A program made the translations under genes and the position numbers. From contig JAUWXJ010000002.1 in assembly GCA_030616425.1 (NCBI GenBank), positions 1 through 38,991 of the forward strand: a stretch of 38,991 bases of DNA, given 5' to 3'. This stretch comes from Desulfobacterales bacterium (lineage in GTDB: Bacteria > Desulfobacterota > Desulfobacteria > Desulfobacterales > C00003060). The notes beneath the pieces were generated by a model. That model did not search any database. It saw only the letters and a program-made list of their open reading frames with translations, and was not told the origin of the DNA. Shown one piece after another: positions 1,903 through 30,360 of the stretch; within the stretch, counting starts at the first letter, position 1; every line of letters begins with the position of its first letter.

Positions 1903-1953
1903 ATTTTAATTAATCCCTTTATCCCTGAACCCCTCGATTCCTGAATCCTTGTC

Positions 1954-3235: not shown

Positions 3236-3334
3236 CTTAAATTTCTATCATTGCATGGTATATCTTGTCAATATTTCACTAAGGCGCTGAGTGAAGCTCA
3301 AATATTGCTAAGGTATAGCGAATTCGAAATATCA

Positions 3335-3365
3335 TTGACACTTGGCTCATACGATATGTTATACT
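3335..3365 (+). promoter_or_regulatory. Candidate sigma70-type promoter for the plus-strand envelope cluster
   Basis: TTGACA at 3335-3340 and an extended -10 TGtTATACT at 3357-3365. It sits in the 215-bp AT-rich divergent region between ccmA and the 3451 gene. Recognised by eye only. Confidence 0.35.
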
Positions 3366-3450
3366 ATATACGTATATTTTTATGCTTATGTAGCACAACA
3401 TGTTGTGGGCGTCACGTCTCGACGCATAACCGAAACAAATCTGCGACAGT

Positions 3451-5373
3451 ATGACCGAAAAACTCAAATCCAGAAAATGGCAATATCCAACCATCATAGG
3501 TATTGTCGCCTTATTATTGATGATTTTCGATGTTTCCTTACAACCCGGACAGATGCATTTACTCTACGCCCGGGAAGCCGTGGATAGCTCGGATCGATTC
3601 TCTTCTGATGTCAGTGCCGCCAACTTCGTACCCTCAAAAATCACTTGTCTTCAGATTATCCAAGAGGATTATGAAGGTTTACGGCTATCTTACCCATCTA
3701 AGGTATTCGTTGATTTTGTAAAGAACGAAATCTATGTCAACGATTCTGGAAACAACACTATATTGGTCTATACCCACGACTTCTATCCGCTTCTTTCTAT
3801 AAGCAAATCGGACGGCGTTGAAGTACCTGTGGGGGTAGCAGTTGATCCCAAAGGATACGTATTTATTACCCAGGCACCTACGAAACAGAAAAAGGGAAGG
3901 ATTTCTGTCTTGGATCCTTGTTTAAAATGGAAAAAGGATATTTTTTTTCAGGGATTTGAAGGCGCTGATGATTTTCAACCAACCAATATTGCAATTAACG
4001 ACAAAGGTCATTTCTATGTAACTGCCAGTTCCTATACTGGGGTGGTGGTTTTGGATAAGGACGGAACATTTTCCCATCTGTTGACACCAACCGACAGCCT
4101 CGGAAAAGCGCCGGTCCAAAAGGCTAAAATACACGACGTGGAGATAGACAGCCAGGGCAACATATACCTTTTGAGTGAAGATATGGGCCGTATTTATGTG
4201 TATGATTCCCAGGAGCGCTTTCTGTTTAAGTTTGGGGAAAAGGGGGGCAGTACCGGGAAACTGAGCCGACCCCGGGGTGTGGCGGTGGACAGTCGCAACA
4301 AACGGATCTACGTGATCGACTATATGCGCCATACAGCAAGTGCTTATTCAACCGACGGACGCTTTTTGTTCGAGTTCGGCGGTAAGGGATGGGGAAGGGG
4401 CTGGTTCCAGTATCCTACCGACATAGCCGTAGACGCCCTGGGTAACGTCCTGGTCGCAGACACGTTCAACAATAGAGTGCAGGTTCTTTCAATACAAGGA
4501 GGTCCACCCGTTACTGTTGCAAAGGTTGAAGAGGCCAAACCCGAAGCTCCTGTTACAGAACACTTGGTTGAAGAAGCCAAACTCAAGGTTCCTGTCAAAG
4601 AACGATTAGTTGCAGAGGCTAAACCGAGCCCCCCTGTCAAAGAAGAAACTATCAAAGAAGAAATAGTTGAAGAGGTTAAGCCCAAGGCTCCTGTCAAAAA
4701 AGAATTAGCAGAGCCAAAACCTGCAAAGTATTATGTCCTGACGGCAAACATGAACCTGCGTGAAAAAAGCACCACCAAGAGCAGGATCATTCAGTTGCTG
4801 AAAAAGGGCGAAGAGTTTCATATCCTGGATCAATATAAACATGATGACTTCAATTCTTGGTTTCTCGTAAAAACCAGATCCGGGCTCACAGGCTGGTTCT
4901 GTGGAATCTATAGCGGAAAAGACATGTTCGTGGAAAAGGAACGAAAACGGATTCCAGCCGTTGCAAAGGCTGAAAAGGCTGAGCCCAAAGTGCCCGTCAA
5001 AAAAAAATTGGTTGAAGAGGTTAAACCCAAAGCTCTTGTGATTAAAAAATTGATTAAGCCAAAACCTGCAAAGTATTATGTCTTGACGGCAGACATGCAA
5101 GATGTGGCAACACTGAAGCTCAAAGTGCTCAGTGGAGACGGCGATTTGAACTCTGCCAAGCGGATGGCAAAAAAGCTTGGAAATATGGGTTATAAGATAA
5201 AATTGGTCGATCGCGCTCCGCGATCCAACTTTTTGCGAAATACAGTCTACTTTGCATCAGGATTTCAGGACGAAGCAAAACGTCTTGTGTCCAGTCTGGG
5301 CAATAATACGATTCTGAAACCTTTAACCTGGTCTTCAAAATTTGATATTATTGTTGTAACAGGCAAGAAATGA
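3451..5373 (+). CDS. Membrane-anchored NHL-repeat beta-propeller protein with Pro/Lys/Glu-rich linkers, an SH3b domain and a C-terminal LytR_C-like domain
   Basis: N-terminal TM segment IIGIVALLLMIFDV. Repeated NHL-type blades are present (YVNDSGNNTILVY, GVAVDPKGYVFIT, IYVIDYMRHTASAY, VLVADTFNNRVQVL). An SH3b-like segment reads YYVLTANMNLREKSTTKSRIIQLLKKGEEFHILD...WFLVKTRSGLTGWF. The terminal LKVLSGDGDLNSAKRMAKKLGNMGYKIKLVDRAP...IIVVTG resembles LytR_C. Confidence 0.7.
   Translation: MTEKLKSRKWQYPTIIGIVALLLMIFDVSLQPGQMHLLYAREAVDSSDRFSSDVSAANFVPSKITCLQIIQEDYEGLRLSYPSKVFVDFVKNEIYVNDSGNNTILVYTHDFYPLLSISKSDGVEVPVGVAVDPKGYVFITQAPTKQKKGRISVLDPCLKWKKDIFFQGFEGADDFQPTNIAINDKGHFYVTASSYTGVVVLDKDGTFSHLLTPTDSLGKAPVQKAKIHDVEIDSQGNIYLLSEDMGRIYVYDSQERFLFKFGEKGGSTGKLSRPRGVAVDSRNKRIYVIDYMRHTASAYSTDGRFLFEFGGKGWGRGWFQYPTDIAVDALGNVLVADTFNNRVQVLSIQGGPPVTVAKVEEAKPEAPVTEHLVEEAKLKVPVKERLVAEAKPSPPVKEETIKEEIVEEVKPKAPVKKELAEPKPAKYYVLTANMNLREKSTTKSRIIQLLKKGEEFHILDQYKHDDFNSWFLVKTRSGLTGWFCGIYSGKDMFVEKERKRIPAVAKAEKAEPKVPVKKKLVEEVKPKALVIKKLIKPKPAKYYVLTADMQDVATLKLKVLSGDGDLNSAKRMAKKLGNMGYKIKLVDRAPRSNFLRNTVYFASGFQDEAKRLVSSLGNNTILKPLTWSSKFDIIVVTGKK
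4666..4752 (+). repeat. Intragenic 87-bp direct repeat, copy 1 (linker plus KPKPAKYYVLTA module start)
   Basis: Aligns without gaps to 5011-5097 at roughly 84 percent identity by eye. It includes an identical 32-nt run, gccaaaacctgcaaagtattatgtc. Confidence 0.85.
5011..5097 (+). repeat. Intragenic 87-bp direct repeat, copy 2
   Basis: See 4666-4752. This copy encodes VEEVKPKALVIKKLIKPKPAKYYVLTADM, against VEEVKPKAPVKKELAEPKPAKYYVLTANM in copy 1. Confidence 0.85.
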
Positions 5374-5495
5374 GGTGGGGCTTTCCGCTTCACAAGCGAT
5401 CTGCACATATCATAAACAGGCAGATCCATCTAGGTTCCCTGCAATCTTGAACGGACAAACCAATTTTATAGAAAAGAAACACAAATAGAGGAGTC

Positions 5496-6899
5496 ATGAA
5501 AAAAATAATCTATCGTTTGATAATAGTTGTATTTGCTGGAATCTGGGCCCTGTCATGTACTTTCAAGCAACCCTCCAAACGCCCTCGATCAACCAACCAG
5601 GGTCAGGTCTTTTTCTATCTTTCCTGCCCCAAGAAACCTACGTTTGATATCTCTTTTTCTCTTTCCGGCATGAGCTTCATGAACAAGGACGGCGAGTGGA
5701 TCGACGTGGCGTTGGATAAACGCATTCGTTCTGCGGAAATTGCGGAAAGGCAGGTCAAATTGCTGGAGTTTTATATGCCTGCTGGAAGGTATAAACGGAT
5801 CAAGTGGACTATTTCAGAAGCAACGGTAAAAAAGGACAAGAAAAGCTTTACCTTGGCCTTGCCCCAGCCCAAGGGTGAGCACCTTATGGATATCGAGTTT
5901 TCTGTGTTAGGCCGGGAAAGCCTGTGTCTATTTGGAGACTGGGATCCAGAGGAATCTATATTCGACAAATATCTCTTTAGGCCTAAGCTAAATATTCGGA
6001 AACAGGGTGCAGAAATCACAAACACTTTAGTCTATGTAACAAACACCGACTCTGACTGCGTTACGTTGATAGACAGGCAACGCGATGCGGTAGTAGCCAC
6101 CATAGCAGTGGGCAGAGCGCCTATTGGAATTGTGGCAACCACGGATGGACATAAGCTCTATGTGGCCAATTCCGGCTCAGACACCATTTCAGTCATCGAT
6201 ACTGCCACGAACAGGGTAACCTATACGATCAGGAACTTCGGTTACAGCCCTGCCGAGCTTGCCCTCTCCTCAGATGACGAAACCCTTTATGCAACCAACC
6301 CCGATTCAGACAATGTATCTGTTATAGACACTGTTTCCCGCACGGTAACCAGCAGAATATCTGTCGGCAAGCGCCCTTGCTGCATACTCATCGATCATGA
6401 CAGGCGCAAGGTCTATGTAACAAACACGGAGTCGCATACCATATCCGTTATTGATATCTCCACGCAATCTGTGGAAGATACGATCACGGTTGGTCTGAAT
6501 CCTACTGGTATGCTTATCCACGAGGACGACCTGTACGTGGCTAATTCGGGCTCAAACAGTATCTACATATTGGACCTTCCTTCTCACACAACAACAAAGA
6601 CGATATCTGTTGGACAAAAGCCTACCTGGCTCCTCTCCGGTCTGCGAGAACGTGTCTATGTGTCTAATACAAATAGCAACCAGATTTCTTTTGTGTACCC
6701 GGATATGGATTTGGTGACCAGGAACGTGTCTGTAGGCGCCCTCCCTTCAAAGATGGCCATGGACGAATTGAGAAGAAAACTCTATGTCGTAAATTCGATG
6801 TCAGAGGACGTGTCTGTTATAGACCTGCCAACATACAATGTGAAAAGGGTGATTCAGGTGGGAAGAACCCCTCACGGCATTGCCCTGATTGAGGAATGA
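5496..6899 (+). CDS. Probable lipoprotein with a DUF4382-like N-terminal domain and a YVTN-family beta-propeller
   Basis: Signal peptide ending in ...IWALSC. There are about eight 40-residue repeats of the YVTN type (LVYVTNTDSDCVTLID, LYVANSGSDTISVID, LYATNPDSDNVSVID, VYVTNTESHTISVID, LYVANSGSNSIYILD, VYVSNTNSNQISFV, LYVVNSMSEDVSVID). Confidence 0.75.
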   Translation: MKKIIYRLIIVVFAGIWALSCTFKQPSKRPRSTNQGQVFFYLSCPKKPTFDISFSLSGMSFMNKDGEWIDVALDKRIRSAEIAERQVKLLEFYMPAGRYKRIKWTISEATVKKDKKSFTLALPQPKGEHLMDIEFSVLGRESLCLFGDWDPEESIFDKYLFRPKLNIRKQGAEITNTLVYVTNTDSDCVTLIDRQRDAVVATIAVGRAPIGIVATTDGHKLYVANSGSDTISVIDTATNRVTYTIRNFGYSPAELALSSDDETLYATNPDSDNVSVIDTVSRTVTSRISVGKRPCCILIDHDRRKVYVTNTESHTISVIDISTQSVEDTITVGLNPTGMLIHEDDLYVANSGSNSIYILDLPSHTTTKTISVGQKPTWLLSGLRERVYVSNTNSNQISFVYPDMDLVTRNVSVGALPSKMAMDELRRKLYVVNSMSEDVSVIDLPTYNVKRVIQVGRTPHGIALIEE

Positions 6900-6943
6900 T
6901 TCCGAAACCACCTTTTTGTGTGAAAGATGCCAACTGAAGTTAT

Positions 6944-9070
6944 ATGAAGCGCTGGACTGCTGTTTTTCTACTGATCTTGGTCTGGTTCCGGGGGGTCTAT
7001 GCCGGAGATGATATACATGGTTCGGCCAGCCTTTCTTATCGCTCCACCGAAACAAAGACTGCCCAAGAAAAAAAGAGCAGCTGGAGCTTCAACCAAACAT
7101 ATAACATAGGCCTTACCAAGGAGTTTACGCCTAAAGTAAATTTCACTGCCAACCTTGGCGTCAATGTCACAGAAACAGATGATACAAAGACCACGCGGCT
7201 CTATCCGGATATGAGGCTGAATCTGTCAAATGAATATTTTAGGGCCGATACCGGGTATCAGTTGATCGAAAGGGGCCTTGACATCTTGACCATGGTCTCA
7301 GACGAGGAGCGGTTCACCACTGAATCCTGGAATACCAATTTTTCCACAAAACTCGAAAAATATCCGAAGCTCCGACTCCGTTACAACCAAGACAAATCTT
7401 ATGACCACCTGTCGGTTCACAAGACAAATACCCAAACAAACAGGTTTTCCGGAAGCGCTGATTATGCCTTCCGTTTCTTGAATCTTTACTATGACTATAC
7501 CAATAACATTTCAGAGGATTATGTTGCAGACAGTACCCAGGAGACTAATACCCATGACGGGAGAGTAAATTTCAGAAAGTCTTTTTGGAGGAACAAGGTA
7601 ACATCGTCCGGAAGCTATTCGCTAAGGGAGAGCAAGACGGAGACAACAACAAGGGGACAGGATGTCGAGGTTGCCGAACAAAAGAGCCCCACTGCAGGAT
7701 TGTATTCTGGCGACCCTCCTAATGTTTTGATCATAGAGCTTGACCCTGAAGCCGAGCTCATAGATGGCGACAAGGCCAATAGTACGGATTCGGACATAAA
7801 CATCGGTGTTGACACCAACCAGAACATCGGGCTGGAGCTCACGTTTTCCGCAGAGATTAATAAGATATATCTTTATACGACCACGCCAATTGACGGTTTT
7901 AACGAGGACGCCTTCACCTGGGCCGTGTATAGTAGCAGTGACAACATTACCTGGGCATCGATAACCTCTTCGGAAGATTATAACGCGAACCAGGAGAGGT
8001 TTGAGTTCTCTGTTACCGAAACGGCCCGCTATTTTAAGGTGGTAAACACGGCAAACGACAATCACGCCCTCGAGGTAACAGAGATCGAGGCTTACGGCAC
8101 TACCACCCAGACATCTTATACCTCAAGCGAGACGGTGAGCACCACGGAAACCGTCAATGCCAATCTTGGTTTTCGGCCCTTTACGTGGCTCTCCTTTACA
8201 TATGACGTCAAGCAAGACATGCAGAAGGACGACGAGAGTGGGGCCGACGCAACTAAAACCAGGCGGTCGACCCAGAATATAAGCGGTCTTCTTGGAAAAG
8301 GATTTCAGGTTCACAAGTATCTGATGGTCCGGCCCCAGTATCAAAAGTGGTTGGAATTTAAAGATGAACCTGATGCAGAGACAAGGAGTTCGACCGATAC
8401 GTACAGGGTACATTTTCTTTCATCCCCGTTAAAAACGCTTGATACCGACCTTTCCCTGAACCACAGCGTATCAAAAGATGAGGATGTAACACAATCAAGG
8501 AACTCATCCGCTCTGCTGCATATAGCGGCCAAACTCCGTGAAGGGGCGGATCTGGACATAGACGCCAACATGTCCCGGACTGAGAATCTTTCAAGTGAAA
8601 CCGTGTCAACAACCAGAACTCTTGATTCAAACCTCCGCCTTAAGCTTACCAGCGCGTTGACAACTGAGATAGAGTATAATAAAACCTGGACCGAAACTCA
8701 AAATATCGCCCCAGGCCCGAGCGAGGGTACCAGCGGGCGTAATTCCTCTGCTAAGGCCACCATTTACTGGCGGCCCTCACACGATTTCTATTTCAGAGGA
8801 TCATACAGCGTTGACCGGGACGAAGAGGCAGGGGATGAAACCTCTCAGCAGGACTATGACCTGAACTGGTTGATTACCGAGAAGATACAGCTCAGTATGG
8901 GCTATGACATAGACAGGAATGATACGGTCCAGACAACCTATTCCTCTGACCTTTCGTGGGGCCTGAGCCGGACGTTCACGCTCAGGTTCGGATTTAACTG
9001 GACTCGGAAAGAGGCCGATACGGAAACAGAAACGCAAGTCGCAACCGTAGATCTCTCAGCACGGTTTTAG
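6944..9070 (+). CDS. Predicted outer-membrane beta-barrel protein with an inserted F5/8-type-C (discoidin)-like domain
   Basis: Signal peptide ending VYAGDD. Long runs of alternating hydrophobic/polar residues rich in T/S/N/Y are typical of OM barrels, and the C-terminus ends ...VDLSARF. Residues ~255-385 (nt 7706-8098) read ...LIDGDKANST...FTWAVYSSSDNITWASI...ARYFKVVNTANDNHALEVTEIEAYG, which is a discoidin-like signature. Confidence 0.6.
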   Translation: MKRWTAVFLLILVWFRGVYAGDDIHGSASLSYRSTETKTAQEKKSSWSFNQTYNIGLTKEFTPKVNFTANLGVNVTETDDTKTTRLYPDMRLNLSNEYFRADTGYQLIERGLDILTMVSDEERFTTESWNTNFSTKLEKYPKLRLRYNQDKSYDHLSVHKTNTQTNRFSGSADYAFRFLNLYYDYTNNISEDYVADSTQETNTHDGRVNFRKSFWRNKVTSSGSYSLRESKTETTTRGQDVEVAEQKSPTAGLYSGDPPNVLIIELDPEAELIDGDKANSTDSDINIGVDTNQNIGLELTFSAEINKIYLYTTTPIDGFNEDAFTWAVYSSSDNITWASITSSEDYNANQERFEFSVTETARYFKVVNTANDNHALEVTEIEAYGTTTQTSYTSSETVSTTETVNANLGFRPFTWLSFTYDVKQDMQKDDESGADATKTRRSTQNISGLLGKGFQVHKYLMVRPQYQKWLEFKDEPDAETRSSTDTYRVHFLSSPLKTLDTDLSLNHSVSKDEDVTQSRNSSALLHIAAKLREGADLDIDANMSRTENLSSETVSTTRTLDSNLRLKLTSALTTEIEYNKTWTETQNIAPGPSEGTSGRNSSAKATIYWRPSHDFYFRGSYSVDRDEEAGDETSQQDYDLNWLITEKIQLSMGYDIDRNDTVQTTYSSDLSWGLSRTFTLRFGFNWTRKEADTETETQVATVDLSARF

Positions 9071-9083
9071 AGGTACAAAAACA

Positions 9084-9653
9084 ATGAAAAATTCCAAGTA
9101 TCTATTTCTTGCCCTGTTGTTCGTCGTCTTCTTTTCAGGATGCAGTGTCCCCATAAGTTATATCCATCCCACAGCAGACCTTACATATATCAAGACAGTC
9201 GCTATTGTACCTTTTCAAAATCTTACTCAGCAAAAAGGGGCGGAAGGCAAGGTAATGAATGTCGTGGCCTCAGAGGTGTTAAGGCGGGGTGTGTTTGATG
9301 TTGTTGAATTCGGAGAGGTCACCAAGGTGCTGAAGGAGGAAGGTTTAAAAAGCGACGGCTCAATCAGCAAACGTGTGGCAGAAAGAGCGGCAAAGCGCTT
9401 GAATGTTGAGGCTTTCATAGTAGGCGCGGTTGAAGAGTACGGTGTCTCGCAAATAGGCGAAAGCTCATATCCAGAAGTCTCGGTCTCCTTAAAGTTGTTA
9501 GATGCAAAATCTTATAAGATCCTATGGGAAACGACGCACAGCGTAAAAGGGACAACGGTCCTAGATCGGCTCTTTGGTATCAGCAAGAAAAGCACGAGCG
9601 ATCTTGCAAAAGAGCTTGTTGCCGAGATGTTTGATACGTTGTTTGGGGGATAG
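9084..9653 (+). CDS. Lipoprotein, DUF799/GNA1162-like (TolB-N/LpoB-like fold), paralog 1
   Basis: Lipobox FFSGC. The pattern VAIVPFQNLT...VLRRGVFDVVE...VEAFIVGAVEEYG...LKLLDAKSYKILWE is shared with the two following genes. Confidence 0.55.
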   Translation: MKNSKYLFLALLFVVFFSGCSVPISYIHPTADLTYIKTVAIVPFQNLTQQKGAEGKVMNVVASEVLRRGVFDVVEFGEVTKVLKEEGLKSDGSISKRVAERAAKRLNVEAFIVGAVEEYGVSQIGESSYPEVSVSLKLLDAKSYKILWETTHSVKGTTVLDRLFGISKKSTSDLAKELVAEMFDTLFGG

Positions 9654-9661
9654 TATCAATC

Positions 9662-9686
9662 AATAAGCTGGATATCTTATTTTTTC
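9662..9686 (+). terminator. Weak AT-rich hairpin plus T-run after the 9084 gene
   Basis: AATAAG-ctggatat-CTTATT followed by TTTTT. The stem is only 6 bp and AT-rich. Confidence 0.2.
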
Positions 9687-9811
9687 TAAGTACATGTTTT
9701 CATAGGCAAAAGCAGGAAAATACGTGATCGAATTTATGAGTTAGAGCACTAAGTCCCTAAGTCTGGGCCCACCATTTTTGAAAACGTATCTGGACGTAAA
9801 AGATTCATTTA

Positions 9812-11335
9812 TTGAAAAAAGATACACTCATCATTGTTGTATTGATCCTTTTTGTTTGTCTACCGATTCATAGCTATGGGAAAAAGGAGTGGCCTATCAA
9901 GAAAAATAATGTTGCGGTCATGCCCTTTGGAGCCTTCACCATTGGTTCCCTCTCCTTTGATTTTACTCATCTGGTCAGAGATCGCCTGATGGATGACAAA
10001 TTCAGCCTTATTTCTCAGGACACGTTGGAAGCATTCCTTGTGGAAAAAAGAGTCCGGAGGACAGATTTCTTAGACCGGGCAACTATCAGGGAGATGGGTA
10101 TGGCCTTGAACGCAGATGCCTTGATAATCGGTTCTGTGGATGTCCTTGCTGGTGGTGAAAATCCCCGGATCGCCATGAGCGCCCAGATGATAGACTGTGT
10201 AGAGTCCTCTGTTGTATGGGCTAACTCCATTTCGTATACCGGGGAAGACTTTGCCGGCTTTCTTGGCATAGGTAAGATAAATTCCCTTCAAAGGCTGGCA
10301 GAAATAGCAGTAAGAGATCTTCTTAAGGGCTTACCCACTGAGGTCCGTGTAGATGATGGGCTGGCAAGGCCATTTGAAATTGTACAAGCGAGCTTCTTCC
10401 CCAAGGTGCTGAAAGGTGGCCAGACAACCAACGTGTCAATTGAGGTAAGGGAGATTACAGGAAAGCCCAAGGATATTAAGGCCTTTGTCCTTGACACCGA
10501 GGTCGTCCTTAAAACAGAGGCCGGAGAATGGTATGCTGGAACGTTAACTGCCCCGACCATTGAAGGGGTATACCCCTTGAGAGTTTATGTAACAAACCAG
10601 GATAATACGCTTTTCAGCATGGATGATTTGGCTGAACTGACAGTCGACAACACCCCGCCCGAGTTTTTCGTTTCATTCCGCCAAAGGCTTATATCGCCTA
10701 ATAACGATGGTAAAATGGACGACATAATGTTCTTCCCCGAAATCCTGAAGGCAGATACCATAAGAAACTGGAGGGTTGAGATTACTGATGAAGCCGGAAC
10801 GGTTATGAGATCAGAAGAGAGTATTGGGAGCTTGCCAGGGGGGTTTATCTGGCGGGGTGAGAACAATAAGTATAAGCGGGTTAAAGATGGAACTTATTTT
10901 TGCCGGTTGATGTTGGAAGACAAGGCTGGTAACAGGTCGGTTTCACCAAAAGAGGCTATAGTAGTCGACTCAACACCGCCTGAAGTGGATGTGGTCCTTG
11001 CTGCTGAAGATGATGAAGGGATAACCATAGAGGTAAAAACCAAAGATATTGACAAAATGGGGGGCTGGGAGTTAATCATATATGATAGAAAAGGGAATGA
11101 GGCAGGCAAGTTTGAGGGCAAAGGGGATATACCAACGACACTAAACTGTACATTGAAGCAGAATCAGGAAGGCCCAAGCCTGGAAAAAGAGGGCTTCTTG
11201 GCCTATTCACTTGAAATTAGCGACATTGCGGGAAACAGGTTAGAAAGAGAAAAAGAACCTCTGAAGCCACCCCGACCAGAGGAACCTGAGAGAGAACCGT
11301 CTGAGAAAAAAGAAGTATGGGTGGAGGATTTTTGA
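9812..11335 (+). CDS. Exported protein: N-terminal DUF799/LpoB-like module (paralog 2) fused to FlgD-Ig-like beta-sandwich domains and an acidic Pro/Glu tail
   Basis: TTG start as called by the ORF track, followed by a signal peptide. The N-terminal module reads VAVMPFGAF...ADALIIGSVDVL...MIDCVESSVVWAN. The Ig-like segment reads VDNTPPEF...ISPNNDGKMDDIMFFPE...WRVEITDEAGTVMRS...WRGENNKYKRVKDGTYFCRLMLEDKAGNRS...VDSTPPEV. Confidence 0.6.
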   Translation: MKKDTLIIVVLILFVCLPIHSYGKKEWPIKKNNVAVMPFGAFTIGSLSFDFTHLVRDRLMDDKFSLISQDTLEAFLVEKRVRRTDFLDRATIREMGMALNADALIIGSVDVLAGGENPRIAMSAQMIDCVESSVVWANSISYTGEDFAGFLGIGKINSLQRLAEIAVRDLLKGLPTEVRVDDGLARPFEIVQASFFPKVLKGGQTTNVSIEVREITGKPKDIKAFVLDTEVVLKTEAGEWYAGTLTAPTIEGVYPLRVYVTNQDNTLFSMDDLAELTVDNTPPEFFVSFRQRLISPNNDGKMDDIMFFPEILKADTIRNWRVEITDEAGTVMRSEESIGSLPGGFIWRGENNKYKRVKDGTYFCRLMLEDKAGNRSVSPKEAIVVDSTPPEVDVVLAAEDDEGITIEVKTKDIDKMGGWELIIYDRKGNEAGKFEGKGDIPTTLNCTLKQNQEGPSLEKEGFLAYSLEISDIAGNRLEREKEPLKPPRPEEPEREPSEKKEVWVEDF

Positions 11336-11344
11336 CATGAGGCT

Positions 11345-11929
11345 TTGATTCTTATGCAAGGCCGGCTTTTTTTTCTATTGATCAGCCTGTTCTTAGTTGT
11401 CTGTCCCGGATGTTATTCTCGTCCAGGCCCAAATAGTTACCTGAGACCTGGTACCGACCAGTCAAAGATCGACAAGGTTGCGGTCTTTCCGTTCCACAAC
11501 AACACTCAAGTGTCTGAGGCCAGCAGTATTGTGACCAAGGCCTTTATCACAGAGCTGTTTGAAAGGAAAAAGCTTAAGGTCGAATTTCCGGGTAATATAA
11601 GAAGCTTCCTTGTCAGTAAGCGAATTATTGTAAGGACAGGCGTCGATCTTGAAACCATAAAAGTAATGGCCAAAAGACTGGGAGTCGACGCCGTTATCTT
11701 AGGGGAGGTAGATGAATACATAGGTGTGGATGACAGAAAAAAAGCTGTCATTCCTGTTGTTTCTATCAGGTCCAGGATGGTGGACGGCCGGAGCGGCAAG
11801 ATCCTGTGGATGGCGCAACACAGGAGAATAGGTAATGATTATATAAAAGTTCTCGATTTTGGAAAGGTAAGGTCGGTAGCCGCATTGACTCGAAGGGTTG
11901 TCAAGGAAATGATCCAGACCATGCCGTGA
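11345..11929 (+). CDS. Lipoprotein, DUF799/GNA1162-like, paralog 3
   Basis: TTG start and a Cys-containing signal end, LVVCPGC. The pattern VAVFPFHNNT...VDAVILGEVDEY...MVDGRSGKILWMAQH parallels 9084-9653. Confidence 0.55.
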   Translation: MILMQGRLFFLLISLFLVVCPGCYSRPGPNSYLRPGTDQSKIDKVAVFPFHNNTQVSEASSIVTKAFITELFERKKLKVEFPGNIRSFLVSKRIIVRTGVDLETIKVMAKRLGVDAVILGEVDEYIGVDDRKKAVIPVVSIRSRMVDGRSGKILWMAQHRRIGNDYIKVLDFGKVRSVAALTRRVVKEMIQTMP

Positions 11930-12001
11930 GGGTGGCATTCGTTATTTGATATTTGATAATGGTCAATATCAATCGTCAATCATCAATCGATAAGTATCAT
12001 T

Positions 12002-13450
12002 ATGAGAAAACTGTCAGTATTCGCCTTTATACCTCTTCTGTGGTTTGTGGCCGCAGATAATAAGGCCCTTTATTGTGCTTCCGAGCATACAGCGGTCCTT
12101 GCTGAAGTAAAAGGTGAGATTATAGATGAAAGGGGGCTTCAGGACAGAATCGATACCATCCACAAGTTTAAGCCGCTGATCAAACCTGATGGGGGGGTGG
12201 GCGGTATCAATATCTTAGACCTTCTTGAACAGATGATCAACGAGCGCCTTATGATCCAGGAAGCTTACAGGGTCGAACTGGACAAGGATCCTGATTTTGA
12301 AAAAAGGCTTCAATCCTCCATAAGAAACCAATCTGTTACCAGATTGAGAAAAGAAGAGGTGCTTGACAAGATCAATATAAGCGAGGAAGACCTGCTTGGC
12401 TACTTCAAAAAACATTATAAAAAAGACGGGCCTGTATCAGATGAAGAGTTTCAGAAAAAGAAAAGGCGAATCCGCAAGAAGCTAAAAAGGGAAAGAGAGA
12501 AAGAGCTGTCTGACAACTTTGTTGCGATGTTAAGAAAGGAATCAGATATCTGGATCGACAGGGAGCTGCTTAATTCACTTGACACTGAAAAGGATTATAC
12601 TGCGAAAAACCCAATAATAGCACGCGTCAATGGCGAACCAATCCCCCTGAATGACATGCTGCACGATATGAGACAGGCATTTCAAAAAAGGGGCAGGATG
12701 TACAGCAGGTTAAAAGATAATAGCGAGCAAGAGAGGCTGCGTGAAGAGTTAAAGCAACAGACGCTGGATGCCCTGATCACCTACAAGTTGATCGAGCAGG
12801 AGGCATTAAGGCGTAATTACCTTAGAGACCCGGCCTTCATGGAAATTATTAGAAAGCGAAAAGAGCGTTTGCTCATTGATCAATTTAAGGAAAAAATAGT
12901 CTATCCCCTTGCTATTCCAACAAAAAAAGAGTTGACAAAGTACTATGAAGAACATATAGACAACTTCAGAAAAGGTTATCAGGTTTGGTTTAGCGAGATG
13001 ACCTTTCGAGCCCGGGAGGATGCTGAAAAGGCCCTGAAGGAATTAAAGCAAGGGGCAAACTTTGAATACTTGGCTACCCATGTGTCAGAAAGGTGGACAC
13101 CGAAGCAAGCGCGCGTATGGGTCAATACTGATAGGTTTCCTCTTGGGATCAGAAAAGAGCTGAATCGGCTGGAGGTCGGACAAACAAGCGATGTCCTCGC
13201 TGATGGCAGACAATACAAGATCATAAAATTAAAGGGGAAAAGAGGGGGGGCGCCCGAGGAATTTTCCCGTGTGGCTCGGAGCTTGAAGAAAATAGTTGCA
13301 CAGCAAAAATTCAACACCGCGCTTTCCGATTACTTGGCCAAATTGCGCAAAGAATCCAACATCAAGATCGATAAAAAAGCCCTGAACAGGATAGAAGAAA
13401 AGTACAAGGCTGGGCCTGCTGAAGAAACTGAAACCACGTCTACAGAATAA
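12002..13450 (+). CDS. SurA/PpiD-like periplasmic chaperone with a degenerate parvulin (PPIC-type) domain
   Basis: Signal peptide, then a SurA_N-like helical N-terminus (LLEQMINERLMIQEA). A central charged coiled region follows. A parvulin-like block reads YQVWFSEMTFRAREDAEKALKELKQGANFEYLA...GQTSDVLADGRQYKIIKL. The usual HxSHIL His residues are not evident. Confidence 0.5.
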   Translation: MRKLSVFAFIPLLWFVAADNKALYCASEHTAVLAEVKGEIIDERGLQDRIDTIHKFKPLIKPDGGVGGINILDLLEQMINERLMIQEAYRVELDKDPDFEKRLQSSIRNQSVTRLRKEEVLDKINISEEDLLGYFKKHYKKDGPVSDEEFQKKKRRIRKKLKREREKELSDNFVAMLRKESDIWIDRELLNSLDTEKDYTAKNPIIARVNGEPIPLNDMLHDMRQAFQKRGRMYSRLKDNSEQERLREELKQQTLDALITYKLIEQEALRRNYLRDPAFMEIIRKRKERLLIDQFKEKIVYPLAIPTKKELTKYYEEHIDNFRKGYQVWFSEMTFRAREDAEKALKELKQGANFEYLATHVSERWTPKQARVWVNTDRFPLGIRKELNRLEVGQTSDVLADGRQYKIIKLKGKRGGAPEEFSRVARSLKKIVAQQKFNTALSDYLAKLRKESNIKIDKKALNRIEEKYKAGPAEETETTSTE

Positions 13451-13453
13451 TAT

Positions 13454-15403
13454 ATGAAACTAACAAAGGCAGCATCATATTCATTGTTACTCCTGGGAAT
13501 AATCCTTATCGCTTCCACTTCTTGTGAGAAAAGGGTCCCCGGGTTTGTCAAAAAGAAGTGTGTTGACTGTCACCAAAAAGAGGCCAAGCAATTTAAAGCG
13601 GCAAAGGTAGTGCATTCTCCTGTTTCCAAGGATGAGTGTGATGCCTGCCACAGGCCTCACGGGGTCATAGGCGGCGTTTATTTGAAGACCAGCCCACAGC
13701 AGCTTTGCTTTACCTGTCATACGGATAGCAAAGCCATGCTTGACAAAAAACATGTCCACACGCCGGTAAGTGAGAAAAAATGTGTCGGCTGCCACAATCC
13801 CCACTCCTCCATGAACAAAGACCTATTAATAGGGAAGGGAAATGAGTTCTGTTTTATCTGCCATAAGCAAGGTCCTTATACCAGAGAGACAACTCATGTT
13901 CCTCTATCTAAAAAGGGATGTTTGGTTTGTCATGATGCCCATGCCTCTGACTATGAGCAATACCTGTTTGACACAAAAAACAATGTGTGCGCAAAATGCC
14001 ATGACTTCAAAAAATCTGGGTTTATCACACGGCACACAGGCTATAACGTAGAACAGAGCAGCTGTGTCTCTTGCCATACATCACATTCATCTTCCAACCC
14101 CAAATTGCTGCGCGAATTCATTCATGCGCCCCTTGACAAGAACCAGTGCGCCGCCTGCCACCACCCTGCGGAATCTGCGGAAGCCTTGCAGCCCAAAGTA
14201 GAAGGGGCTGAACTCTGCTACGGGTGCCACAGGGAAAACGAGATCGCTTTCACAAAGGCCCACATCCATGATCCGGTCAACGAAGGCGATTGTCTGTCGT
14301 GCCACAGCCCCCATGCCACGGGCAACAAATATGTAACCATTCTTCCTGATGGGAAGCTTTGCTACTCGTGCCATGAAGAGACAGAGGAGTTGTCTAAGAA
14401 GCAGCATGTGCACAAGCCGATAACGGAGAACAACTGTACCGCCTGCCATAATCCCCATGCATCAAGCAACGAATATGAATTGAAAGACCTTGGCAAAACG
14501 TTATGCTTCCGATGTCACACAAAAGATGGTTTTACCCATTCAAATATTCACGAGCCTATTAAGAAAGGAAACTGTATCGTCTGCCACGACCCGCATGCAT
14601 CGGATAACAAATTTGAGCTTAAGTTGGTTGAGATCCAGCAGTGTTACACTTGTCACCAGAAAGAACAAATGCTCTTTGACCGGGTAAACGTCCACACGCC
14701 CATAAGGATTGGCAGGTGTGTCGCTTGCCACAACCCCCACTCAATTGACAGGGAAAAACTCTTGGTTCAGGCAAGGGAGAAGCTCTGCTTTAACTGCCAT
14801 CAGGGCATGCTAGATGAGGTGAAGGGGGGAACCATCCATCCCTCTTTTGAAAAAGGAGAGTGCCTGAGATGCCATAACGAACATGCCAGTGACCATGATT
14901 TTCAACTGATCGAAACAAGAGGAGAGAATTGTTACCGGTGTCATGCCAGGATTCAAGCCTCTTCTAACACGAGTAAATACAACCATGCCCCGCTCAAACA
15001 GGGAGAATGCACAGCCTGTCATAATCCCCACGGGAGCAAGATAAAGGGGCAATTGTACCGACCCGTGGGAAGCCTGTGCCTGTCATGTCATACAGATCTG
15101 GGCACACACATTAAAAAAGACAAACACAAGCACAGCCCCGCAAAGAAAGGGGACTGTCTGAAGTGCCATGCTCCCCACTATGCAAACATTGAAGGCCTGC
15201 TTGCAGCTCAGGGGGCCAGTCTATGCAAGGGTTGTCATGATCTGGAGGCTTCAGCCCTTGTAACTTCCCACAGTAGGATCGCGATAACGGGCTCTGATTG
15301 TATCGGCTGTCATGAATCACATACTTCGGAAAACAAAAGACTGTTGCACAAGGTTTTGCATCGCCCGTTTGAGGAGGGCCACTGCACAGCATGTCATGAG
15401 TAG
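13454..15403 (+). CDS. Multiheme c-type cytochrome with 26 CXXCH motifs (13 tandem di-heme modules)
   Basis: I count 26 CXXCH motifs in 649 aa. A regular unit recurs: LCxxCH, about 12 aa, H-x-P, about 5 aa, CxxCHxPH[AS]S. This is the doubled-CXXCH / c7-polymer style. The protein has an N-terminal signal with ...ASTSC. Its start lies 3 nt after the stop of the chaperone gene. Confidence 0.9.
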   Translation: MKLTKAASYSLLLLGIILIASTSCEKRVPGFVKKKCVDCHQKEAKQFKAAKVVHSPVSKDECDACHRPHGVIGGVYLKTSPQQLCFTCHTDSKAMLDKKHVHTPVSEKKCVGCHNPHSSMNKDLLIGKGNEFCFICHKQGPYTRETTHVPLSKKGCLVCHDAHASDYEQYLFDTKNNVCAKCHDFKKSGFITRHTGYNVEQSSCVSCHTSHSSSNPKLLREFIHAPLDKNQCAACHHPAESAEALQPKVEGAELCYGCHRENEIAFTKAHIHDPVNEGDCLSCHSPHATGNKYVTILPDGKLCYSCHEETEELSKKQHVHKPITENNCTACHNPHASSNEYELKDLGKTLCFRCHTKDGFTHSNIHEPIKKGNCIVCHDPHASDNKFELKLVEIQQCYTCHQKEQMLFDRVNVHTPIRIGRCVACHNPHSIDREKLLVQAREKLCFNCHQGMLDEVKGGTIHPSFEKGECLRCHNEHASDHDFQLIETRGENCYRCHARIQASSNTSKYNHAPLKQGECTACHNPHGSKIKGQLYRPVGSLCLSCHTDLGTHIKKDKHKHSPAKKGDCLKCHAPHYANIEGLLAAQGASLCKGCHDLEASALVTSHSRIAITGSDCIGCHESHTSENKRLLHKVLHRPFEEGHCTACHE

Positions 15404-15486
15404 GTGAGCCATTACTCAAGGGTTATATATTTTTAGTGAACTTATAAATTCAAATATCTGAAGAAACCGATTCTGTAGGAATAAAG

Positions 15487-16743
15487 ATGGTCGTGGTTCA
15501 AAGAAACATATACCGGGCTTTTCTTCTATTTGCCTGCGCCTTCACAGGTTTCATATCGGTGACAAACTCGGCCTATGCCAAGGGTACGCAGGTCAGTGCA
15601 GAGAAATGTCTAAAATGCCACCCTGATCTGCGCCAGGAAATGGCATCCAGGGGTGCCCATGCGCCTTTTAAGAGACTTGAATGTTCAAGTTGCCATAATC
15701 CTCACACCTCAAATTACGAACACCTGGTCAAAGAGCAGATCAGCAAACTGTGCAAGAACTGTCACAAGGGCAAGAAGGGGGTTTTTGGCAAAAAGTACGG
15801 CCACTCCCCATTTGAGGAAGGGGCGTGCCTGAAGTGCCACAGGCCTCATTCTTCCAAGAACCGAAAACTGTTGCTCGCTGCAGGGGGAAAACTCTGCTTT
15901 ACCTGCCATGCCAAGAAAGAAATCCTTTCAAAGAAATACAAGCACGACCCGGTGAAGAAAGGCAAGTGCCTAACCTGCCACAGTCCCCACACGTCTGACC
16001 ATGAAAGGATGCTGAAAAGGGGTCTTTCACAAGCGTGCGTCTCGTGCCATTCAATTAAGAGTAAGGCAGCCAAAGCGTCGCACAGTCATTACCCGGTGCA
16101 GGACTCGAAATGCACATCCTGCCATAACCCCCATGCATCAAGCCACAGCAATTTGATCAAGGAAAGTTCTCATAAGCCATTTGCCGAGAGGAAATGTACT
16201 CAATGTCATAATTCTGTCCGGTCACGTGATCCCTTGGGTGTGAAAGGTGAAGGCATGTCAGTCTGTGTTGCTTGCCACCCGTCAACCAAGGAGGATTTCA
16301 GGAAGGTCAATACCCACGTAGGGCAAGGTGTTTTTTGCATAAACTGCCATAGCCCGCATGCCTCAGATGAAGCCCACATGAAAAAGGCAAAAGAGACAAG
16401 AATATGCACAAGCTGTCATCGGGATACAAAAGAGCATTTAAGAGACAAGAAGAATAAGTACAAGCACCCGTCGGTTATGGAAGGAAAGTGCAGCGAGTGT
16501 CATCGTCCCCATGGGTCTAACTTCAGGCTACTTTATCCCACTGATGAAATCGGCGCCTGCGCTGAATGCCACAAAAGACACGTCTCGTTCACCCATCCCA
16601 TAGGAAAAGATGCTATTGACCCTAGGTCCAAGGGGGAGATTACGTGTGTCACATGTCACAACCTGATGGGAAGCCGTCACGATTTTGCATTGAGATTTGA
16701 TCGGAAAAAGGAATTGTGTATTCAGTGCCATAAGGGGTACTAG
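15487..16743 (+). CDS. Multiheme c-type cytochrome with 16 CXXCH motifs
   Basis: I count 16 CXXCH motifs in 418 aa, with the same paired-module pattern (CSSCHNPHTS, CLKCHRPHSS, CLTCHSPHTS ...). The signal peptide ends SAYAKG. Confidence 0.9.
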   Translation: MVVVQRNIYRAFLLFACAFTGFISVTNSAYAKGTQVSAEKCLKCHPDLRQEMASRGAHAPFKRLECSSCHNPHTSNYEHLVKEQISKLCKNCHKGKKGVFGKKYGHSPFEEGACLKCHRPHSSKNRKLLLAAGGKLCFTCHAKKEILSKKYKHDPVKKGKCLTCHSPHTSDHERMLKRGLSQACVSCHSIKSKAAKASHSHYPVQDSKCTSCHNPHASSHSNLIKESSHKPFAERKCTQCHNSVRSRDPLGVKGEGMSVCVACHPSTKEDFRKVNTHVGQGVFCINCHSPHASDEAHMKKAKETRICTSCHRDTKEHLRDKKNKYKHPSVMEGKCSECHRPHGSNFRLLYPTDEIGACAECHKRHVSFTHPIGKDAIDPRSKGEITCVTCHNLMGSRHDFALRFDRKKELCIQCHKGY

Positions 16744-16767
16744 TTTGTCATTGGCATACCCATGTCG

Positions 16768-16912
16768 TCAAATGGTTGCGGTTACGCGGCTCGTTTAGCG
16801 CAAGCTTCACTTCGTGTCGGTGCTCGGTTTACGTCAAACGGCTTTAAAAGACGACTGAACCGATAGACGATAGCCGTAACGAGCAGCGCAACCGATAAAC
16901 GATAGCCGTTCT
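16768..16912. repeat. Structured intergenic repeat, family member A. It also contains an 18-bp direct repeat and long-range inverted complementarity.
   Basis: The core tcGTTTAGCGCaAGCTTCACTtCGTG at 16791-16816 matches 18087-18112 and, with an insertion, 30246-30296. ccgatagacgatagccgt (16860-16877) and ccgataaacgatagccgt (16892-16909) form a direct repeat. ggttgcg...gctcgtt (16774-16795) is partly complementary to ccgtaacgagcagcgcaacc (16874-16893). Confidence 0.6.
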
Positions 16913-16998
16913 TTCATAAACCTCAATTTGTGGCCGTGTTAAGTATATAAATACAAGATATGAGTGCGCAGAAAAATGACAGGTATATAGGGAGTATT

Positions 16999-17898
16999 AT
17001 GTCTAGAAAGATCAATTTCGTTATCCTGTTTTTGACCTTCTTCCTGATCATACCGGCAACCGCACTTTGCGCGGGAAAAGGGATTAAGCACCTTACATCG
17101 ATTACCAGAGACACGGAAACAGGCCGTTTGGGCCTGCTAGGCGGTGTCTTTTTTGATGAAAACAGGAATAGATTATATGTGACCGATACCACAAACAAAC
17201 GGATCCTCGCCTTTGATGTTGACATGAAGTTTGTGTCTGAATTCAATGCGGGCGGAGCCTTAGAGGCTCCAACCTTTCTGGTAAGAAACAGCAAAGGTCA
17301 GTTTTTTGTTGCTGAGCCAACAAAAGGTAACATTCTGTTTATTGATATTAGACAAAAGTCTGTTAAGCCAATCGATTTTTCAGGCGTTCCCAAGGCCAAC
17401 ATCATTTATCCCGGCAAGATGACCTTGGATTCGTCAGATAATCTATATATCGTTGATAAAGCCAACCAGAGGATTCTTATTTTTGATCCAGATCTACGGT
17501 TCGACAGGCAAGTCCTTGTCAAAGACGGCAAAGGCCTAAGCGATGTAAAGGTTGACTCAAGTGGTAATATTTATGCGTTAAATACAATAGGCGGATCTAT
17601 TAGCGTTTTTGACAGCCGGGGAAATCTCCTCCAAACATTTGGAAAAAAGGGCAAAGAAAAACAGGAATTCGATTTCCCCGTGAGCCTCGCCATACACCCA
17701 AAAGGGGTGATCTATGTGGTCGATCAACACAAGCATAAGGTCTTGGCCTTCAACAAAAAAGGCGAATTTCTGCTATACTTCTCAGAGTTAGGCTGGAGAG
17801 AAGGGCGCCTCCACTATCCCTCCTTTATCTGTGTAAACAAGGCTGGTAGGATCTTCATCGTCGACAGAGGGAACAGCCGCATCAGCGTTTTTGAATAA
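16999..17898 (+). CDS. Secreted NHL-repeat beta-propeller protein
   Basis: The ORF opens at 16960. The ATG at 16999 has an AGGGAG RBS and yields signal peptide MSRKINFVILFLTFFLIIPATALCAG. Six NHL-type blades are present (LYVTDTTNKRILAFD, FFVAEPTKGNILFID, LYIVDKANQRILIFD, IYALNTIGGSISVFD, IYVVDQHKHKVLAFN, IFIVDRGNSRISVFE). Confidence 0.8.
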   Translation: MSRKINFVILFLTFFLIIPATALCAGKGIKHLTSITRDTETGRLGLLGGVFFDENRNRLYVTDTTNKRILAFDVDMKFVSEFNAGGALEAPTFLVRNSKGQFFVAEPTKGNILFIDIRQKSVKPIDFSGVPKANIIYPGKMTLDSSDNLYIVDKANQRILIFDPDLRFDRQVLVKDGKGLSDVKVDSSGNIYALNTIGGSISVFDSRGNLLQTFGKKGKEKQEFDFPVSLAIHPKGVIYVVDQHKHKVLAFNKKGEFLLYFSELGWREGRLHYPSFICVNKAGRIFIVDRGNSRISVFE

Positions 17899-17965
17899 GA
17901 TCGGCTGATCTGTTCTGCCTCCTTTCCGTTGTGCAAACTGCTCGCAAGGCCATGCCATAGGCACA

Positions 17966-18188
17966 AGACCTTTGCATAACTCCTTTGATCGGCCTTTATG
18001 AACTTTTTGGGGCACCCATCCGGGCGAAGCGAACGGCCCACGCCAGTGGGCAAATTCCAAACTGTTTGAGGCGGCCCTTGGGCCGAGTTTAGCGCAGAGC
18101 TTCACTACGTGCTGGGATTTAGTGAGCAAGTCCGTGGATGGGTCAAAAAGTTCATACGAAAGGTAAAAAGGGGGTTATGCAAAGGTCT
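17966..18188. repeat. Element bounded by inverted repeats in the convergent intergenic region. It contains intergenic repeat family member B (about 18058-18178).
   Basis: agacctttgcataac (17966-17980) is the exact reverse complement of gttatgcaaaggtct (18174-18188). The interior aactgtttgaggcgg...ccGAGTTTAGCGCagAGCTTCACTACGTGCTgggaTTTAGtGAGc...tcaaaaag...cgaaagg...aaaggggg aligns with 30223-30358. Confidence 0.6.
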
Positions 18189-18205
18189 CGGCGCATCGTG
18201 GGCAC

Positions 18206-19213
18206 TTACATGACTTCTATGCCCTCAGGGGGGCAAACCAGGGCCACCTGTTCTCCTGTCAGGATCGGGGCCTGTTTGTACTCTTCTTGCCCAAGGAGGA
18301 CGCTGACAGGAATCCCGATATCTATAAGGGCTCTCACGTCGCCCCCTTCGTCAGTAAGCTGCATCACCCGGCCGACGAATCTGTGATCTCCAGCAGGGTT
18401 ATCCATGGCTGGAAAGACTTTGATCATCCTGGGATCGATCGATACTTTCACATATCCGCTTTTATCGGTCCTCACCGCAAGCCTTACCTTGTTATGAATC
18501 AAGCAATACGTATCCCCATCGACATCTGTCCTGATGAGTCCGCTGAAAATATTCTCATAAATGGATGAGGCAGGCTTTCCGTTAAAGAGAAAGATGATAC
18601 AATCAGAGAGCCTGGCCGCCTGTATCCTGTCGTGGGTAGTAAATATAACTGAAATCCCTTTTTGAATGTTGATATCCCTTAGTATGCCTTCAATGGCGAC
18701 CTGGTTTTCAATATCCACACTGGAGGTCGGCTCATCGAATTAAATCACCCTGGGAGAGCAGGCAAGGGCTCGGGCAATGGCTATTCTCTGAGTCTCTCCA
18801 CCTGAGAGCTTATGGGCGCTCGCATCAGCAAAATCACGCATTGCTACTAAATCAAGCACTTCCAGGATGATTCTTTTTCTGCGCTTTTTTGGAACCTTCC
18901 TGACTTTCAGCCCGAACTCCACATTCTTATACGCGCTTGTGGTAAACAGAATCGGCTGCTGTTCAACCATGACCACTTCCCTTCTCAGCTCTTGAAGAAG
19001 AGTCTCTGAGAAACCGACTTTTCTCGAGTCATAAACGATTTCGCCTGTGGTGGGCCGCAGCAAAAAACTCAGGGTTTCCAGCAGGGTTGTCTTGCCCGAC
19101 CCGTTTGGGCCGAGGAGGCCGCATACCTTCCCCTTTTCGAGACAAAGTTCTGAGATGTCCAGAACCTTGCGGTTTCCATAGATCTTGGTAAGATTCTTGA
19201 CCTCGAAAAGCAT
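18206..19213 (-). pseudogene. tupC: Tungstate/molybdate-type ABC transporter ATPase (TupC-like, with a C-terminal TOBE-like domain), interrupted by one in-frame TAA
   Basis: The two track ORFs (18740-19213 and 18206-18718) are in the same frame. Reading through gives ...[34 protein letters not shown].... The TAA at 18742-18740 replaces the hydrophobic residue of Walker B (hhhhDE) and is one base away from TTA (Leu). Walker A is GPNGSGKTT. Confidence 0.75.
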
Positions 19214-28769: not shown

Positions 28770-28824
28770 GTTTTGATACACGGTGAATCTAACCCAGAGA
28801 TTATCTATCCAACGAGGCAGTATT

Positions 28825-30108: not shown

Positions 30109-30222
30109 TTTACAACAAAACTTCTTAAAGTAGTCTTCTACAAGCTGTTTCAAAACCTTTTAACGAGTCCATTTTAGCCTTTTTTGCCAAAAGTTTTTAG
30201 TGATGTGGTGTGTTAAAATTGT

Positions 30223-30358: not shown

Positions 30359-30360
30359 TA

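Follow-up and report, generated by a model that had tools for sequence, protein, structure and literature searches.

What electron path could two adjacent genes for very heme-rich cytochromes build, and where in the cell envelope would it run? The question is raised by a locus in a 38,991-nucleotide stretch of a Desulfobacterales genome (contig JAUWXJ010000002.1; this whole stretch is called the window below). Cytochrome A (13454-15403, plus strand) has 649 residues and 26 CXXCH heme-binding motifs, and cytochrome B (15487-16743, plus strand) has 418 residues and 16 motifs. Both counts had been given in an original prediction made from the sequence, and we reproduced them. They are far above chance: residue shuffles of the two proteins yielded 0.39 (A) and 0.24 (B) motifs on average with a maximum of 3, and the rest of the window contains just 5 isolated CXXCH in all six frames. 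The only non-heme cysteines are residue 24 of A and residue 17 of B, both within the signal peptide. We propose, with a probability of about 65%, an MtrAB-like porin-cytochrome conduit of the Oet type (hmlA/hmlB, oscI/oscJ), with A and B as its two large cytochrome subunits. The cytochrome pair and its gene cluster have already been described, and the window adds one more lineage rather than a new system; added here are the assignment of A as a lipoprotein and of B as a soluble protein, and a group of single-chain 42-heme fusions with the docking that they imply.

The heme motifs are arranged in a regular repeat. The Pfam model PF09699 (Paired_CXXCH_1) matched A 13 times (442 bits) and B 8 times (265 bits, for a cutoff of 20.6), and TIGR01905 gave equal counts with 425 bits for A and 242 bits for B. 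Judged by these matches, A and B are members of the doubled-CXXCH domain proteins (PF09699 / TIGR01905), of the Geobacter/Desulfuromonadales style that had been recognised in the original prediction and that the published operon discussed below also displays. Motif spacings and conserved histidines showed that the predicted repeat unit is real: a full module reads LCxxCH, about 12 residues, HxP, 7 residues and CxxCHxPH, with two hemes per period of ~48 residues, or ~24 residues per heme. The 13 and 8 tandem modules announced earlier agree with the numbers of PF09699 matches, but A is not a string of 13 identical units. Its spacings and conserved histidines resolve into 12 full di-heme modules and two half modules (HxP-7-CxxCH without the trailing histidine), one after heme 8 and the other after heme 25, and a single residue is left after heme motif 26. 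B opens with four regular modules carrying its first 8 hemes and continues with a half module at heme 9, marked by a 28-residue spacing; its pattern loosens toward the C-terminus. The two proteins are paralogs, collinear from their N-termini (33% identity, E 9e-64). Tandem Repeats Finder detected no tandem repeat at the DNA level in either gene, so the repeats are ancient. The family is large: at E <= 1e-30, A has matches in 606 representative clusters.

We then examined the heme ligands. When A was aligned with 67 relatives (68 sequences, mostly ~30-37% identical), all 26 heme motifs were invariant. Exactly 26 histidines outside the motifs are conserved, 24 of them invariant, one at 93% and one at 87%; as candidate distal ligands, 14 are of the HxP type and 12 of the CxxCHxxH type. 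No methionine of A is conserved across the 68 sequences. The bis-His coordination suggested earlier is thereby borne out for A, with one conserved non-motif histidine for each heme. The alignment of B with 54 relatives revealed 13 conserved non-motif histidines, and H277 and H365 have a histidine within 2-3 residues in relatives. The conserved histidines would suffice for bis-His ligation of 26 of the 26 hemes in A and 15 of the 16 in B. As this leaves no obvious open coordination site, both proteins are probably electron carriers and not enzymes. At the CxxCHxxH position after heme 15 of B, the window encodes Met394 (16666-16668) where 91% of the 55 homologs have a histidine, and the methionine is also found in the closest relatives (loci L004 and L005). 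The replacement of this histidine suggests that one heme near the C-terminal end of B may be His/Met-ligated in this clade, with a probably higher potential.

The two proteins differ in their signal peptides. A carries the lipobox IASTS-C24, with its first heme motif 11 residues downstream of C24, while B has a Sec signal with a signal peptidase I site of the AXA type (AYA followed by KG), as do its orthologs. A lipobox cysteine was found by a strict pattern in 20 of 31 split 26-heme relatives (~25 by eye), in none of 12 16-heme relatives and in 2-3 of 36 fused 42-heme relatives. A is thus predicted to be a lipoprotein and B a soluble periplasmic protein with an ordinary signal peptide.

The AlphaFold2 model of A, built from the 68-sequence alignment, consists mostly of loops and short helices (predicted local distance difference test (pLDDT) 92, predicted template-modelling score (pTM) 0.72). 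Against the PDB, Foldseek returned one significant match for this model, 6r2q_A (E 2.9e-7, prob 1.0, TMt 0.45), and phmmer found this chain alone for the sequence of A (E 2e-17). The chain is mislabelled in the sequence file and was identified from the Foldseek description and from PMC7198977 as MtrA, in the Mtr complex of Shewanella baltica. It was also by far the top phmmer match for B (E 1e-24), followed by four weaker matches to NrfB, a high-molecular-weight cytochrome c and a c7-like domain protein. The original prediction had looked to OmcS, OmcE and OmcZ for comparison; MtrA takes their place, and no homology to these three cytochromes was detected by phmmer against the PDB for A or B or by Foldseek against the PDB for A. 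The TIGR03508 model (258 positions) scored 304 bits on A, a value that exceeds its cutoff of 192.2 only when six partial matches are added up, and 178.9 bits on B, under the cutoff; by this measure A and B would stand outside the DmsE/MtrA decaheme family as a single ten-heme unit. MtrA distributes 10 hemes, all bis-His, over 80 Å (PMC7198977). Scaled from this pitch, and if the chains are linear, the 26 hemes of A would extend over ~22 nm, the 16 of B over ~13 nm and all 42 over ~36 nm, and the length of tens of nanometres anticipated for the larger protein is therefore reasonable for a linear chain.

How A and B could be connected is suggested by natural fusions. At least 39 homologs of A, of ~1060 residues, carry exactly 42 CXXCH motifs; examples among the homologs P0001-P0054 are P0002, P0007, P0023, P0027 and P0047, and fused genes occupy positions 10001-13198 of locus L006, 10001-13147 of L007 and 10001-13174 of L008. 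Their inter-motif spacings reproduce the fingerprint of A, then a junction of 20-27 residues, which is an ordinary inter-heme spacing, then the fingerprint of B. In BLASTP comparisons the best match of B was the segment after the junction, end to end, in 39 of 39 fusions, and that of A was the N-terminal segment in 37 of 39. The fusions are hence collinear, heme for heme, with A followed by B, at 30-37% identity. Named hosts are Zixibacteria, Latescibacterota, Krumholzibacteria and a metagenome-assembled genome (MAG) of the FCB group, and the proteins bear no annotation beyond 'cytochrome c3 family protein'. Unlike the split pair, they are single polypeptides whose signal peptide is mostly of the ordinary kind, and no peptidyl-prolyl isomerase (PPIase) gene lies nearby. 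In L006-L008 they are surrounded by genes for NHL propellers, LpoB-like lipoproteins, further cytochromes and a ~550-residue protein without a Pfam match, which may be a barrel, smaller than the 708-residue barrel encoded in the window. A neighbour-joining tree grouped most fusions in one clade and placed three lipobox-bearing ones elsewhere, indicating that fusion or fission probably took place more than once. In the split genes, A stops 1-5 residues after heme motif 26, and the mature B of the window starts ~9 residues before its first motif, so that the gene break falls exactly at a module boundary. From the existence of natural A-B fusions we infer that the C-terminus of A meets the N-terminus of B, with a heme chain continuous across the interface; the two proteins would dock end to end into one 42-heme chain of ~36 nm. 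The literature that we searched contains no mention of 42-heme fusions, which is weak evidence of their novelty.

We next compared the locus with published clusters. Skennerton et al. 2017 (PMC5539420) described an operon with a core of a six-bladed beta-propeller, 26-heme and 16-heme cytochromes and a peptidyl-prolyl isomerase, found in SEEP-SRB1, Ca. Desulfofervidus, Desulfuromonadales, Geobacter, Anaeromyxobacter and Desulfurivibrio; it had 'no known physiological function' and a role in electron transfer was only proposed. Murali et al. 2023 (PMC10553843) added the barrel (OetI/omb), named the set OetABI or OetI-type conduit, and labelled the two large cytochromes hmlA and hmlB in their S5 Table. 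Both papers regard the operon as a candidate conduit for extracellular electron transfer or direct interspecies electron transfer. A corresponds to hmlB of this table and probably to OetB, and B to hmlA and probably to OetA. In the window, adjacent genes with 26 and 16 CXXCH motifs, unrelated to HmcA (33 bits with the HmcA model, for a cutoff of 400), lie between a PPIase gene upstream and an NHL gene downstream, together with an omb homolog, and this content places the locus with the Oet/hmlAB operons. Its gene order is that of the SEEP-SRB1a cluster: SH3 protein, beta-propeller lactonase, omb, DUF799 lipoprotein, gliding-motility-C-terminal protein, hypothetical protein, PPIase, hmlB and hmlA (PMC10553843). 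The window nevertheless represents a different lineage, its barrel being 55% identical, over 67% of its length, to the partial protein P0225 ('DRH21_04740'), the entry listed as omb for a SEEP-SRB1a genome in the S5 Table. The ~70 kDa 26-heme protein of G. sulfurreducens is GSU2495 (oscI), with GSU2494 (oscJ) as its neighbour, and these would be the counterparts of the pair in that species according to the literature. The order seen in the window recurs in a D. ferrophilus cluster: lipoprotein, OmpA-family protein, lipoprotein, PPIase, a cytochrome with a lipoprotein signal, a cytochrome with a Sec signal, and a six-bladed propeller. An assignment of DFE_0464/DFE_0465 as the 16/26-heme pair of D. 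ferrophilus was not confirmed by the papers and was dropped.

The genes of A and B belong to a co-directional block of ten genes (3451-17898), all on the plus strand. The candidate partner of the cytochromes is a 708-residue outer-membrane beta-barrel of the OetI/'omb' type (6944..9070), recognised from its AlphaFold2 model, from Foldseek and from the published omb homolog. It starts with a signal peptide and ends in phenylalanine, and its model (pLDDT 88) is almost all beta, with ~28-30 strands counted in the DSSP strings. Among hundreds of PDB barrel matches, the best TM-score was obtained with MtrB (6r2q_B, 0.40/0.43; TMq 0.40). An F5/8 type C (discoidin) domain is inserted at residues ~268-375 (nucleotides ~7745-8068), with 29 bits for a cutoff of 28.2, and homologs of the barrel match OMP_b-brl together with F5/8 type C. 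Discoidin domains bind carbohydrates or surfaces. Many of the barrel homologs are annotated just as 'discoidin domain-containing protein'.

The gene just upstream of A encodes a 482-residue periplasmic PPIase-chaperone of the parvulin type, similar to SurA, PpiD and PrsA (12002..13450; Pfam Rotamase_2 and SurA_N_2/3). Its TAA stop codon occupies 13448-13450 and the ATG of A starts at 13454, so the 3-nt gap noted earlier is real, and the linkage of the two genes holds as well, this neighbourhood being kept across phyla. The 16-heme gene is followed by that of a 312-residue NHL six-bladed beta-propeller (16960..17898; Pfam NHL 87 bits). This gene completes the four-gene core of the published operon, follows the 16-heme gene in L001-L005 and stands beside the fused gene in L006. 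Every gene of the block was found in unchanged order, at 62-88% identity, in a Desulfobacterales MAG and in a Guaymas Basin 'Deltaproteobacteria' MAG, where A has its best genome matches (80% and 70% identity, respectively). Three distant contigs, one of them from Desulfuromonadales, keep the core at 23-35% identity. Over five other loci (23-88% identity), the conserved order is barrel, lipoprotein, ~500-residue protein, lipoprotein, PPIase, 26-heme cytochrome, 16-heme cytochrome and NHL protein. A word-indexed homolog search with A listed nothing above 37% identity, its pre-selection being swamped by longer repeat proteins, and an exact look-up of A in the assembly index found no record. The idea that A is an orphan without close homologs was discarded, as a genome scan based on the barrel found orthologs 70-80% identical to it.

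The remaining genes of the block encode envelope proteins. At its start lie genes for a 640-residue secreted NHL/SH3_3/LytR_C-like protein (3451..5373), assigned from Pfam and from its S5 Table position, and for a YVTN beta-propeller (5496..6899; Pfam YNCE and Lactonase, TIGR02276 229 bits, S5 Table position). Their counterparts in L004/L005 are 73-78% and 73-74% identical, and the product of the former, 'SH3 domain-containing protein', also stands at the edge of the SEEP-SRB1a cluster (PMC10553843). Between the barrel and PPIase genes are those of a 189-residue lipoprotein resembling LpoB and GNA1162 (DUF799) (9084..9653; lipobox FSGC; Pfam PF05643 and PF13036), which directly follows the barrel gene in L001-L008; of a 507-residue immunoglobulin-like (Ig-like)/CHU_C protein (9812..11335; weak Pfam CHU_C, Big_13 and FlgD_ig matches, S5 Table), collinear in L001-L005; and of a 194-residue probable lipoprotein, distantly GNA1162-like (11345..11929; weak PF05643), collinear in L001-L005 at 26-84% identity. 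This trio of two LpoB/DUF799-like lipoproteins around a ~500-residue Ig-like protein (9084-11929) is kept across very distant clusters, L001-L008. Its central protein is annotated CHU_C, OmpA or CsgG-like in other genomes, and the trio stands outside the published 'core', without a proposed role. Promoter and terminator scans over 3000-18300 gave counts equal to the shuffled expectation. Directly upstream of the cluster, and divergent from it, are ccmC, ccmB and ccmA (1231-3235, minus strand), genes of cytochrome c maturation (Ccm), which would fit a locus that needs 42 attached hemes; one published SEEP-SRB1g cluster likewise lists ccmA at its edge.

We favour the reading in which A and B serve an Oet-type conduit whose electron path would span the outer membrane and a large part or the whole of the periplasm, both proteins acting as pure electron-transfer chains of closely packed His/His c-type hemes. 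After export of A by Sec, Cys24 would receive the lipid and the adjacent Ccm system would attach the 26 hemes, and the C-terminus of A would dock on the N-terminus of B to complete the 42-heme path of ~36 nm. Concerning topology, we suggest that the MtrA-like B may lie in the 708-residue barrel with its irregular C-terminus pointing outward, and that A may remain periplasmic, its heme-1 end held by the lipid anchor on the inner-membrane side. This arrangement is modelled on MtrA, whose N-terminus is periplasmic and whose C-terminus points outward, and which cannot pass its barrel (PMC7198977); it is further suggested by B being the closer MtrA relative, with a specialised irregular C-terminus, by the order of the fusions, A then B, and by the lack of a lipid anchor in most of them. 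The heme-1 end of A would be ~30 nm from the outer membrane and hence at the inner membrane. If the conduit reading is right, this topology has somewhat less than an even chance; taken overall, it is doubtful. A further proposal, equally tentative, is found in neither of the two papers describing the operon (PMC5539420, PMC10553843): a wire of fixed length, 42 hemes over ~36 nm, might hard-wire the envelope from heme 1 of A at the inner membrane to an exit through the OetI barrel, with no diffusible periplasmic shuttle, the FCB fusions being its unsplit version. The PPIase, the NHL and YVTN propellers and the LpoB-like lipoproteins could be assembly or scaffold factors, and the parvulin in particular may help to fold the modules, each with two conserved prolines. 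As to the direction of electron flow and the physiological role, which we infer, the conduit may exchange electrons with a partner cell or a mineral, for instance in direct interspecies electron transfer in seep sediments.

Several points weigh against this reading. The 708-residue barrel has no MtrB/PioB match in Pfam, where only DUF7840 appeared, below threshold, and its gene lies 4 genes upstream of A. The lengths are scaled from MtrA on the assumption of linearity, and the AlphaFold2 models carry no hemes. Whether the lipoprotein A is destined for the inner or the outer membrane is not predictable from sequence in this phylum, and Murali et al. assign the lipoprotein cytochrome to the cell exterior instead of the periplasm (PMC10553843). 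No member of the family has been purified, localised or genetically shown to move electrons, and cytochrome deletions in the related D. ferrophilus cluster had no Fe(III) oxide phenotype.

The published Oet topology arranges the same proteins differently, on the pattern of MtrCAB: B (OetA) would sit inside the barrel and A (OetB) would be a surface lipoprotein on the outer membrane that exchanges electrons with OmcS/OmcX-type filaments or with a partner cell. It accounts for the conserved lipobox of A, as in MtrC and OmcB, and for B being the closer MtrA relative, and OetB is described as an 'extracellular facing cytochrome c lipoprotein' (Murali et al. 2023, PMC10553843). The fusions, however, argue otherwise: their A-then-B order would force the N-terminus of B, the periplasmic end in MtrA, to point outward, most of them lack a lipid anchor and start with an ordinary signal peptide, and their 26-heme part could not, once folded, cross a barrel in which MtrA is trapped. 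Moreover, both ends of a ~22 nm protein would be needed at the membrane surface, and a Pfam scan of the cluster revealed no type II secretion or surface-lipoprotein export gene. We thus consider a surface location of A unlikely. No OmcX/OmcS-like or ExtA-like cytochrome gene was found beside the cluster in the window.

Two other explanations dispense with a conduit of defined length. A and B could form a periplasmic electron store or relay, either a 'capacitor' or a wire of broad specificity leading from inner-membrane complexes to soluble partners, with no link to the barrel and with neighbours that serve other envelope functions. This would agree with the prediction of Skennerton et al. that the four core proteins are periplasmic and unattached to membranes (PMC5539420), with the many electrons that 42 low-spin hemes could hold and with the four genes between the barrel and A. 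It is improbable, though, given that barrel, lipoproteins, PPIase and both cytochromes remain collinear from Desulfuromonadales to Desulfobacterales at just 23-35% identity, that the fused forms also adjoin LpoB-like lipoproteins and ~550-residue possible barrels, and that the closest structural relatives, MtrA and MtrB, form a sheathed pair. The last explanation takes the proteins for c7-domain polymers, the style named in the original prediction, or for extracellular nanowire filaments like OmcS/OmcE/OmcZ. c7-domain polymers, such as the GSU1996-type dodecaheme proteins of Geobacter, consist of tandem triheme c7 domains, each with one His/Met heme. High heme density and a linear chain would suit such a protein; weak Pfam Cytochrome_C7 matches occur beneath the stronger PF09699 ones, and B marginally matches the 'c7-like domain' chain 8k9e (E 2e-4). 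But neither 26 nor 16 is divisible by three, a period of ~48 residues holds two hemes, and A has no conserved methionine. A found no c7-polymer sequence in the PDB at E <= 0.001, its sole match being MtrA, and neither a c7-polymer structure nor OmcS/E/Z was matched. The lipid anchor and the monomeric 42-heme fusions also argue for a complex of defined length and not for an open-ended polymer. The c7 comparison did not survive these results, and we consider a c7 polymer or a nanowire very improbable.

Elsewhere in the window, we observed two further features. A gene for the ATPase of a TupA/TupB-like tungstate ATP-binding cassette transporter (18206-19213, minus strand) is interrupted by a single in-frame TAA (18740-18742) within its Walker B motif (SPRVI*FDEPTSS), at a position where leucine is expected; possible explanations are a pseudogene, an error in sequencing and a single-base change from TTA. 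The region 28783-38801 is a neighbourhood of the chromosomal origin type, with dnaN (30629-31744), gyrB (31681-34143), yidC (36401-38062) and jag (38040-38801). No dnaA open reading frame precedes dnaN in the window. The 520-bp stretch 30108-30629 belongs to the region of lowest GC content in the window (~39-43%), and consensus DnaA boxes are not enriched near dnaN.

On genomic grounds, the operon is the foremost candidate for the bacterial part in direct electron transfer between methane-oxidising archaea and their sulfate-reducing partners, and it is widespread in metal-cycling Desulfobacterota; what the present analysis offers is a sharper, testable architecture for a known system that is experimentally uncharacterised. 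With c7-domain polymers, A and B share long linear heme chains made from a repeated small unit, whereas this unit is di-heme here and triheme there, and the conserved ligands of A are all histidines. The nearest system with a solved structure is the MtrA-MtrB pair of Shewanella MtrCAB (PDB 6R2Q; Edwards et al. 2020, PMC7198977), which has the same type of all-bis-His, peptide-poor heme chain and in which the chain is likewise partnered by a beta-barrel, the one here being very large and having its top TM-score to MtrB. The chains differ in that MtrA is a single subunit with 10 hemes, whereas two chain-forming subunits are present here, with 26 and 16 hemes, the former lipidated. In comparison with MtrB, the barrel of the window has ~28-30 strands and a discoidin insert and is without an MtrB_PioB Pfam match, and no MtrC-like surface decaheme is found here, in contrast to Shewanella MtrCAB. 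In Shewanella, the soluble periplasmic proteins STC and FccA carry electrons from CymA of the inner membrane to MtrA (PMC7198977). If the proposed architecture is true, the 42-heme chain would take the place of such soluble carriers, as the first protein wire of defined length from the inner-membrane surface to the cell exterior.

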